Positions 39,629 through 41,460 of a stretch of 64,000 nt of DNA are shown here, in pieces. Below the pieces are notes generated by a model that was not told where the DNA came from, did not search any database, and saw only the letters and a program-made list of their open reading frames with translations. Source of the DNA: Escherichia coli (GTDB lineage: Bacteria; Pseudomonadota; Gammaproteobacteria; Enterobacterales; Enterobacteriaceae); the NCBI RefSeq assembly GCF_024223415.1, contig NZ_CP100500.1; one strand, written 5' to 3'. The position numbers and the translations under genes are program-made. Every line of letters begins with the position of its first letter. The stretch's first letter is position 1.

Positions 39629-40204
39629 ATGACGCAACAAATCACCCTCATTAAAGACAAAATTCTCTCCGATAACTATTTCACCCTGCACAACATTACT
39701 TACGATCTCACGCGCAAAGATGGCGAAGTTATCCGCCATAAACGTGAAGTTTACGATCGCGGTAATGGTGCGACGATCCTCCTGTACAACGCGAAGAAAA
39801 AGACCGTGGTTCTGATTCGTCAGTTCCGTGTCGCTACCTGGGTTAATGGCAATGAAAGCGGGCAGCTGATTGAAACCTGCGCCGGGCTGCTGGATAACGA
39901 CGAACCGGAAGTGTGCATTCGCAAAGAAGCGATTGAAGAGACGGGCTATGAAGTGGGCGAAGTGCGCAAATTATTTGAACTGTATATGTCGCCAGGCGGT
40001 GTGACTGAGCTAATCCACTTTTTTATCGCCGAATACAGTGACAATCAGCGCGCTAACGCCGGTGGCGGTGTCGAAGATGAAGATATTGAAGTGCTCGAGC
40101 TGCCGTTCAGCCAGGCGCTGGAGATGATCAAAACCGGCGAGATACGTGACGGTAAGACGGTGTTATTGCTTAACTATTTGCAAATGTCACATTTAATGGA
40201 CTGA
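39629..40204 (+). CDS. nudK: Nudix hydrolase (GDP-mannose pyrophosphatase)
   Basis: ORF track 39602..40204; likely start [10 protein letters not shown] giving 191 aa; Nudix box. Confidence 0.85.
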
Positions 40205-40329
40205 AAAATAACAATAATATTTCGTTGTTTATTCTTGGCTCAATCCGACAAATCCGATTGAGCCACGCTACCTGCGCAACGAAGATACGACTTGTGCTGT
40301 TTGTTTGAACTTCTGGGGTCGTACCGTCC

Positions 40330-41373
40330 ATGCGCTATCGCATTTTCCTTCTCTTTTTTTTCGCTTTGTTGCCGACGTCTTTGGTGTGGGCGGCACCAGC
40401 GCAACGGGCGTTTTCCGACTGGCAGGTCACCTGTAATAACCAAAACTTCTGCGTGGCGCGTAATACGGGCGATCATAATGGACTGGTGATGACCCTGAGC
40501 CGCAGCGCCGGGGCGCATACCGATGCCGTTTTACGTATTGAGCGCGGCGGGTTGAAGTCGCCGGATGCGTCTGAAGGGGAAATTGCGCCACGGCTGCTGT
40601 TAGATGGCGAGCCGTTGGCGTTAAGTGGTGACAAGTGGCGGATTTCACCATGGTTATTAGTAACCGATGATACGGCAACCATCACCGCGTTTTTGCAGAT
40701 GATTCAGGAAGGGAAGGCGATCACCTTACGCGACGGCAATCAGACCATTTCTCTGAGTGGCTTAAAAGCGGCGTTGTTGTTTATTGATGCTCAGCAAAAG
40801 CGCGTTGGCAGTGAAACCGCGTGGATCAAGAAAGGGGACGAACCGCCGCTCAGCGTACCGCCCGCGCCTGCGCTGAAAGAGGTCGTGGTGGTTAACCCAA
40901 CGCCGACGCCACTCTCACTCGAAGAACGCAACGATTTGCTGGATTATGGAAACTGGCGGATGAATGGTCTGCGCTGCTCGCTTGATCCATTGCGTCGTGA
41001 GGTGAATGTCACTGCGCTGACTGATGATAAAGCGCTGATGATGATTAGCTGTGAGGCAGGGGCCTATAACACCATTGATTTGGCATGGATTGTGTCGCGT
41101 AAAAAGCCACTAGCCTCGCGTCCGGTTCGGTTGCGTTTGCCGTTCAACAACGGGCAGGAGACAAATGAACTGGAACTGATGAACGCAACATTTGATGAGA
41201 AATCGCGTGAACTGGTGACCTTAGCGAAAGGGCGCGGATTAAGCGATTGTGGCATTCAGGCGCGCTGGCGCTTTGACGGTCAGCGTTTTCGCCTGGTGCG
41301 TTACGCCGCAGAACCCACCTGCGATAACTGGCATGGGCCAGACGCCTGGCCCACGTTGTGGATCACCCGTTAA
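40330..41373 (+). CDS. ypfG: DUF1176 periplasmic protein
   Basis: 347-aa ORF with signal peptide. Confidence 0.75.
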   Translation: MRYRIFLLFFFALLPTSLVWAAPAQRAFSDWQVTCNNQNFCVARNTGDHNGLVMTLSRSAGAHTDAVLRIERGGLKSPDASEGEIAPRLLLDGEPLALSGDKWRISPWLLVTDDTATITAFLQMIQEGKAITLRDGNQTISLSGLKAALLFIDAQQKRVGSETAWIKKGDEPPLSVPPAPALKEVVVVNPTPTPLSLEERNDLLDYGNWRMNGLRCSLDPLRREVNVTALTDDKALMMISCEAGAYNTIDLAWIVSRKKPLASRPVRLRLPFNNGQETNELELMNATFDEKSRELVTLAKGRGLSDCGIQARWRFDGQRFRLVRYAAEPTCDNWHGPDAWPTLWITR

Positions 41374-41390
41374 ACAAAATGGCGGGACAT

Positions 41391-41460
41391 GTAGGCCGGG
41401 TAAGACGCTGTAGGCCGGATAAGACGCGTCAGCGTCGCATCCGGCAATCAGCATCCGGCG
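41391..41460. repeat. BIME including an intact PU of the same architecture as the two IS targets
   Basis: gtaggccggataagacgcg-tcag-cgtcgcatccggca at 41411..41447. Confidence 0.75.

Follow-up and report, generated by a model that had tools for sequence, protein, structure and literature searches.

The inverted repeat between nudK and ypfG in Escherichia coli probably marks a promoter of ypfG that is activated by RcsB, with a putative RcsB box, a -35 element, a -10 element and a predicted start at about 40293. This reading is based on the pattern of conservation, on promoter geometry and on the observation that the conserved block follows ypfG, together with published data on the stress and rcsB dependence of ypfG RNA. 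Positions refer throughout to the window, the whole 64,000-nucleotide stretch of E. coli DNA that was analysed. In the mechanism we propose, damage to the outer membrane or the peptidoglycan would activate the Rcs phosphorelay and produce a phosphorylated RcsB dimer, which would occupy the box between -49 and -36 and, as happens at rprA, either bring in sigma70 RNA polymerase or activate it there, so that ypfG, encoding a periplasmic DUF1176 protein, would be switched on. The loop of the repeat, together with the start of the right arm, would form the 14-bp pseudo-palindromic box (TCCGACAAATCCGA), and the remainder of the right arm would supply the -35 hexamer TTGAGC, with the -10 hexamer GAAGAT 17 nt further on and the start near 40293. 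The sequence upstream of this box would have become complementary to the -35 region in Escherichia alone, giving rise to a strong RNA hairpin. That hairpin, confined to Escherichia, is probably a by-product, and at most a lineage-specific addition.

The gene order in this part of the E. coli chromosome window is aegA-nudK-ypfG-tktB. The coding sequence of nudK (GDP-mannose pyrophosphatase; 39629..40204, plus strand), taken from the open reading frame list and the RefSeq annotation of matching E. coli records, ends in the stop codon TGA at 40202-40204, and that of ypfG (DUF1176, PF06674, with a signal peptide) occupies 40330..41373 on the same strand, leaving a spacer of 125 nt. The inverted repeat GGCTCAATC-cgacaaatcc-GATTGAGCC lies at 40237-40264, with nine perfect pairs and a 10-nt loop. 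The preliminary description had correctly reported a 9-bp stem between the two genes that begins 32 nt past the nudK stop, and had placed it at 40236-40263, which is off by one. The left arm, TGGCTCAATC (40236..40245, strand-neutral), is conserved outside Escherichia only in its inner ATC, and the right arm, GATTGAGCCA (40256..40265, strand-neutral), includes a GATTGAG that is nearly invariant in about 25 genera. T40236 and A40265 form a tenth pair in the strain studied; in most E. coli position 40265 is G, making this pair a U-G wobble in RNA. Two further pairs, G40247-C40254 and A40248-T40253, are possible inside the loop. RNA folding, proposed earlier as a check, gave a stable structure with a minimum free energy of -16.4 kcal/mol on the plus strand (z = -6.5; 0 of 200 shuffles were as stable) and -18.4 kcal/mol on the minus strand.

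No T-run lies 3' of the stem on either strand, the stem being followed by ACGCTACC on the plus strand and AAGAATAA on the minus strand, and the earlier view that the hairpin is no intrinsic terminator is borne out. A terminator scan did not call the hairpin and found no canonical terminator between nudK and ypfG. The element resembles an intrinsic terminator in being a stem-loop downstream of a coding sequence, but it has no U-tract and its 10-nt loop is long for a terminator; this candidate was rejected for want of a T-run. A scan of 39900-40700 against Rfam (E <= 10) returned no family. A dispersed repeat was likewise rejected: the element shares with REP/BIME sequences that it is an intergenic E. 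coli palindrome, but it is unlike the REP consensus and is single-copy, with one match in the window at up to 3 mismatches and, over 5425 genomes, a median of one location each. It was found in 5425 of 5426 complete E. coli genomes. Perfect hairpins of at least 10 bp with a loop of 3-12 nt are enriched in the window as a class, with 6 distinct examples where first-order Markov simulations predict about 0.85 hits; at that expectation, finding one of them in 64 kb is unremarkable on its own. Among individual E. coli strains, G5 (locus L003, 751-1448) carries an IS1A inserted directly after the nudK stop and upstream of the hairpin (window position ~40205), with the ypfG promoter block intact. 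In strain LCP30S3_I5 (L092) nudK is an annotated pseudogene with an internal stop, and the ypfG promoter block is intact except for C40264A.

The pattern of conservation across the family is that of a promoter footprint and not of a helix. Sequences downstream of nudK were anchored and aligned for 80 nudK loci, one genome per species across the Enterobacteriaceae, and the helix was examined in a gap-free alignment (A2) of 73 distinct Enterobacteriaceae sequences. In the anchored alignment, information content reached 2.0 bits at G40247, A40248, A40251, T40253 and C40254 and at A40257-G40260, with TTGAG at 1.9-2.0 bits, and was just 0.5-1.1 bits in the left arm at 40237-40242. The left-arm sequence GGCTCA is specific to Escherichia, with AAATCT in its place in most genera, and the loop and right arm, ATCCGAYAAATCYGATTGAG, are near-invariant across genera. 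The right arm is followed by a stretch of 17 nt that is constant in length and free in sequence, and then by GAAGATAC at 1.2-1.7 bits. Conservation distributed in this way fits a promoter with its operator and not a helix.

A conserved structured RNA was also sought in the pairing itself, and that candidate was rejected: in the 73 sequences, 65.5% of cells were paired against a shuffle mean of 67.3%, the covariation score was 0.042 against 0.055 in shuffles, and there was no Rfam match. The outer pairs of the helix are unpaired in most genera (columns 12 and 39, for example, pair in 9 of 73 sequences), and by the alignment the pairs that always form are merely invariant bases. Two stem variants seen within E. 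coli, G40237A and C40264A, have no compensating change.

The block also belongs to ypfG by its distribution. Distant YpfG orthologs were reached by a search of proteins clustered at 50% identity, a plain homologue search having given close relatives only, and the block was intact upstream of orthologs at 50%, 47% and 44% protein identity. At the 47% ortholog about 510 nt separate the block from the nudK stop, the ypfG ATG comes 113 nt after the block, and there is no complementary left arm. The 44% ortholog has a divergent small open reading frame and an AcrB-type pump as its upstream neighbours, with no nudK, and carries TCCGATAAATCTTA followed directly by TTGAGT, 103 nt upstream of its ATG. 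The block was absent from orthologs at 40-42% identity. The converse case is found in E. albertii, which has kept nudK (96% identity) and lost ypfG; here the block has decayed to GGCTCACTCCGGTTGAACC by deletion of one ATCCGA repeat unit and point changes. Taken across these genomes, the conserved block is one that travels with ypfG, not with nudK. Where ypfG has been lost, in E. albertii (L008, 3077-3240) and Pluralibacter (L052, L059), the sequence between nudK and tkt is REP-like or holds a terminator.

These observations bear on an alternative in which the Escherichia hairpin acts as RNA on transcripts reading through from nudK, a role that could coexist with that of a promoter and that we consider unlikely. 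Its appeal lies in the stable stem-loop 32 nt past the nudK stop with no U-run (-16.4 kcal/mol, z = -6.5), which fits a class of 3' protective stem-loops at Rho-dependent ends (Dar and Sorek, 2018; PMC6061677) that likewise stand shortly after a stop codon with no U-rich tract, and in the full dyad being kept in essentially all E. coli. The nudK-ypfG helix differs from that class in that it is not conserved and in that sequence conservation follows the downstream gene. The helix is absent from most genera with no compensatory change, the two E. coli stem variants are uncompensated as well, and with 17 C and 17 G in the next 65 nt the downstream sequence is neither C-rich nor G-poor. Term-seq data had been named earlier as a place to look for a 3' end at this position; the accessible tables of Adams et al. 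(2021) list neighbouring loci and no 3' end for nudK, which is weakly expressed. The read-through of nudK does call for some explanation: uninduced ypfG RNA is about 7.5-fold below nudK RNA, and with no canonical terminator in the spacer something must end or destabilise these transcripts. The preliminary description had offered a Rho-dependent pause, an RNA stability element or a protein-binding site. The first two found no positive support, as the helix is neither conserved nor covarying outside Escherichia and the block follows ypfG; the third is the favoured one, although the putative site would act on DNA, and for the downstream gene ypfG. That interpretation was therefore partly supported, the hairpin being no terminator and a putative protein-binding site, but one that would belong to a DNA-level promoter and operator of ypfG and not to an RNA element of nudK.

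Two conserved hexamers, the second with a fixed A and T at its positions 2 and 6, held apart by a stretch that is free in sequence but not in length, are the hallmark of a sigma70 promoter. The promoter reading assigns the conserved positions as follows. The sequence TCCGAYAAATCYGA (40244-40257) matches 7 of the 8 specified positions of the published RcsB box TN(G/A)GAN4TC(T/C)NA, with a perfect right half-site, and as a strand-neutral 14-bp pseudo-palindrome it would lie at a predicted -49 to -36. It is followed on the plus strand by the predicted -35 hexamer TTGAGC (40258..40263), identified by its conservation and its fixed 17-nt distance to the -10 block, by the 17-nt promoter spacer (40264..40280; 0.1-0.7 bits, gap-free in the anchored alignment) and by the predicted -10 hexamer GAAGAT (40281..40286), of which position 2 is a conserved A and position 6 a conserved T. 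Scoring 3/6, GAAGAT makes a poor -10 element, and relatives carry GAACAT, GAATAT, CATGAT or CAGGAT. The predicted transcription start of ypfG (~40293; 40291..40295, plus strand) comes from the geometry of rprA. The -35, -10 and +1 positions are thus inferred from geometry and conservation.

The main box scored 7/8 in all 78 sequences, and the variation seen between genera, as well as within E. coli, falls on positions that the consensus leaves free: any base (N) at 40249, and a pyrimidine (Y) at 40255, where only C or T occurs. The exception to the consensus is box position 3 (40246, column 21 of A2), where all 78 sequences have C or T in place of the consensus purine, so that the two half-sites are systematically asymmetric. 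A second RcsB-like box, TTGGCTCAATCCGA (40235..40248, strand-neutral, 7/8), is created by the left arm and overlaps the main one, and this register reaches 7/8 in only 16 of 78 sequences. The RcsB consensus with up to one mismatch is matched by chance about once per 780 positions; because it is so degenerate, a 7/8 match is weak evidence alone, and the case is made by footprint, register, linkage to ypfG and expression combined. The composite pattern of box, TTGANN, 16-18 nt and NANNNT occurs in the 64-kb window only at the nudK-ypfG locus, where it is present on both strands, with 0.09 occurrences expected. In Enterobacter, Leclercia, Kosakonia and other genera, TCAGATAAATCTAT stands just 5' of the main box, where Escherichia has the left arm (the equivalents of 40229-40243); it has a second RcsB-like GA-N4-TC core and scores 7/8 in 12 of 78 sequences.

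The arrangement is that of known RcsB-activated promoters. Phosphorylated RcsB has been crystallised on a fragment of the rprA promoter from -53 to -33, in which the box TGAGACGAATCTGA lies at -49 to -36 (PMC7913699). In a K-12-type genome, this box of rprA starts at -49 relative to the annotated +1 and precedes the -35 hexamer TCGACG, a spacer of 17 and the -10 hexamer TACTAT, and osmB promoter 1 has the box TAAGATGATTCCTG, GTTGAT, a spacer of 17 and TGTTAT. The ypfG elements (TCCGACAAATCCGA, TTGAGC, 17, GAAGAT; start predicted) show the same register of box, 6, 17 and 6, and at all three promoters a 14-bp pseudo-palindrome with the core GA-N4-TC abuts the -35. The right half-sites AATCTGA and AATCCGA make ypfG like rprA, from which it differs in a better -35 (TTGAGC) and a worse -10 (GAAGAT). 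Unlike both rprA and osmB, the ypfG box in Escherichia is embedded in a perfect dyad of 9-10 bp, and the box has a pyrimidine at position 3 in every ortholog, not G or A. In EMSAs, changes in the (G/A)GA triplets weaken the binding of RcsB (PMC7913699), and the pyrimidine at this position may signify a weak half-site or a partner protein. We infer direct binding of RcsB at the ypfG box. EMSA, footprint or ChIP data for RcsB at ypfG were not found in the searchable literature, and the genes of the locus are not mentioned in the SMRT-Cappable-seq and Romero 2014 supplements. The strongly rcsB-dependent gene ypeC has no box of at least 7/8 within 250 nt, so the simple consensus misses some Rcs promoters.

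Published expression data are consistent with such a promoter. An inhibitor of LolCDE, which mislocalises lipoproteins and thereby activates Rcs, raised ypfG 38- to 44-fold, along with osmB, ycfJ, bdm, the wca genes, ypeC, yaiY, ygaC and ivy (PMC5105897). In the same data ypfG RNA rose from 4.9 in untreated cells to 185-217, nudK RNA from 36.9 to 101-128 (2.7- to 3.5-fold, in counting that is perhaps not strand-specific) and aegA RNA from 7.8 to 12-16 (1.5- to 2-fold). Since induced ypfG RNA exceeds nudK RNA, the induction has to originate at a promoter inside the 125-nt spacer and cannot reflect read-through of nudK. An O157:H7 isolate carrying a disrupted rcsB showed a 4.6-fold decrease of ypfG, along with ycfJ (-25), ypeC (-24) and bdm (-11.5), and nudK was not among the changed genes (PMC5343319). 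Complement-active serum also induces ypfG, along with ycfJ, ygaC and fepE (PMC4145685). An indirect effect of RcsB is possible, because the LolCDE inhibitor triggers the Cpx and sigmaS responses too and because the rcsB data come from a spontaneous O157 variant.

The block might instead be the operator of another regulator, such as Fur, a protein of the NarL/FixJ type or a heterodimer partner of RcsB, with the Rcs dependence indirect or shared, which we regard as quite improbable. Weight matrices predict a Fur box for ypfG (PMC4145685), box position 3 is always a pyrimidine and so departs from the consensus of the RcsB homodimer, and the sequence can also be read as a direct repeat, ATCCGA-N3-ATCCGA. 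Against this, expression of ypfG tracks that of Rcs-specific genes and is rcsB-dependent, and the position and geometry of the block equal those at rprA and osmB. As for Fur in particular, ypfG responds to complement and not to iron limitation as such (PMC4145685), and the best match to the 19-bp Fur consensus GATAATGATAATCATTATC scores 11/19 and lies at 40207-40225, in a non-conserved AT-rich stretch outside the block; a Fur box was rejected on this account. Readings of the motif as a sigma28, sigmaE, sigma54, FNR, CRP, IHF, LysR-type (ATC-N9-GAT) or OxyR-like site seem not to fit, in spacing or in core bases.

With the block read as an RcsB-activated promoter, there is the separate matter of why its flank forms a perfect dyad in Escherichia. 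We see about an even chance that the dyad as such does nothing and is accidental or neutral, function residing only in the promoter elements that it contains, and neutral drift is the simplest account of it. The left arm is unconstrained across genera, chance alone would yield about 0.85 perfect 10-bp hairpins in 64 kb, and partial dyads of 5-7 bp appear and vanish in Kluyvera, Pseudocitrobacter, Citrobacter and Salmonella. What speaks against neutrality is that five extra complementary positions would arise by chance in only about 1 in 1000 cases per lineage, and that E. coli, the cryptic Escherichia clades and E. whittamii have kept the dyad.

A more elaborate account, which we put forward as a very doubtful one, makes the Escherichia dyad a single RcsB box serving as the hub of two mirror promoters, one for ypfG on the plus strand and one for a nudK antisense transcript on the minus strand. 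Because the box is pseudo-palindromic and its left flank is complementary to the -35, a mirror -35-like TTGAGC is formed by the left arm on the minus strand (40238..40243), in Escherichia only. A -10-like TATTAT lies 18 nt from it on the same strand (40214..40219), with a putative antisense start at about 40207, directed into nudK. This putative promoter (box, TTGAGC, 18, TATTAT) has a better -10 than the GAAGAT of the plus strand. If it were real, envelope stress would induce, from the same RcsB dimer, both ypfG and an antisense RNA against the 3' end of nudK, and GDP-mannose could in this way be spared for Rcs-induced synthesis of colanic acid.

The ypfG promoter element appears ordinary in kind and not described before; the texts searched contained no description of the function or the promoter of ypfG (DUF1176). 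The gene is among those most strongly induced by damage to the outer membrane or to lipoprotein trafficking, and it would be a putative direct addition to the Rcs regulon that is deeply conserved, the block being kept to 44% protein identity. The promoter reading would account for a conspicuous hairpin with no new RNA element, and it suggests a caution for genome scans, that a palindrome right after a stop codon may be the promoter of the next gene. With its pyrimidine at position 3, shared by all 78 sequences, the site would represent a natural variant of the RcsB box, and could inform models of half-site recognition or of heterodimer use.

Other sites were found in and around ypfG. Its 5' UTR at 40305-40329 contains TTCYGGGGYTGTRCC just before the ATG, strongly conserved across genera. 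In the minimum-free-energy fold of the E. coli sequence it can pair with 40287-40294, just past the -10, and other genera show different local hairpins; the block may serve in ribosome binding or form a leader structure. Inside ypfG, at 40420-40437 on the plus strand, lies TGGCAGGTCACCTGTAAT, in which the E. coli -12 element has GT in place of GC. Its counterpart in Salmonella, TGGCAGGTCACCTGCAAT, is listed as an intragenic sigma54 site in ypfG/STM2476 found by ChIP-chip (PMC3844500). The Term-seq tables of Adams et al. (2021) list a 3' end "antisense to ypfG" at window positions ~41319-41379 on the minus strand, at the 3' end of ypfG and in the tktB 3' UTR. This UTR crosses a true REP (~41411-41446, between ypfG and tktB) and overlaps about the last 45 nt of ypfG. 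The antisense 3' end falls a few nt past the hairpin GGGCCAG-gcgt-CTGGCCC (~41352-41335, minus strand), which has no U-run, and a U-less 3'-end hairpin of the kind proposed in the preliminary description thus occurs at the opposite end of ypfG.
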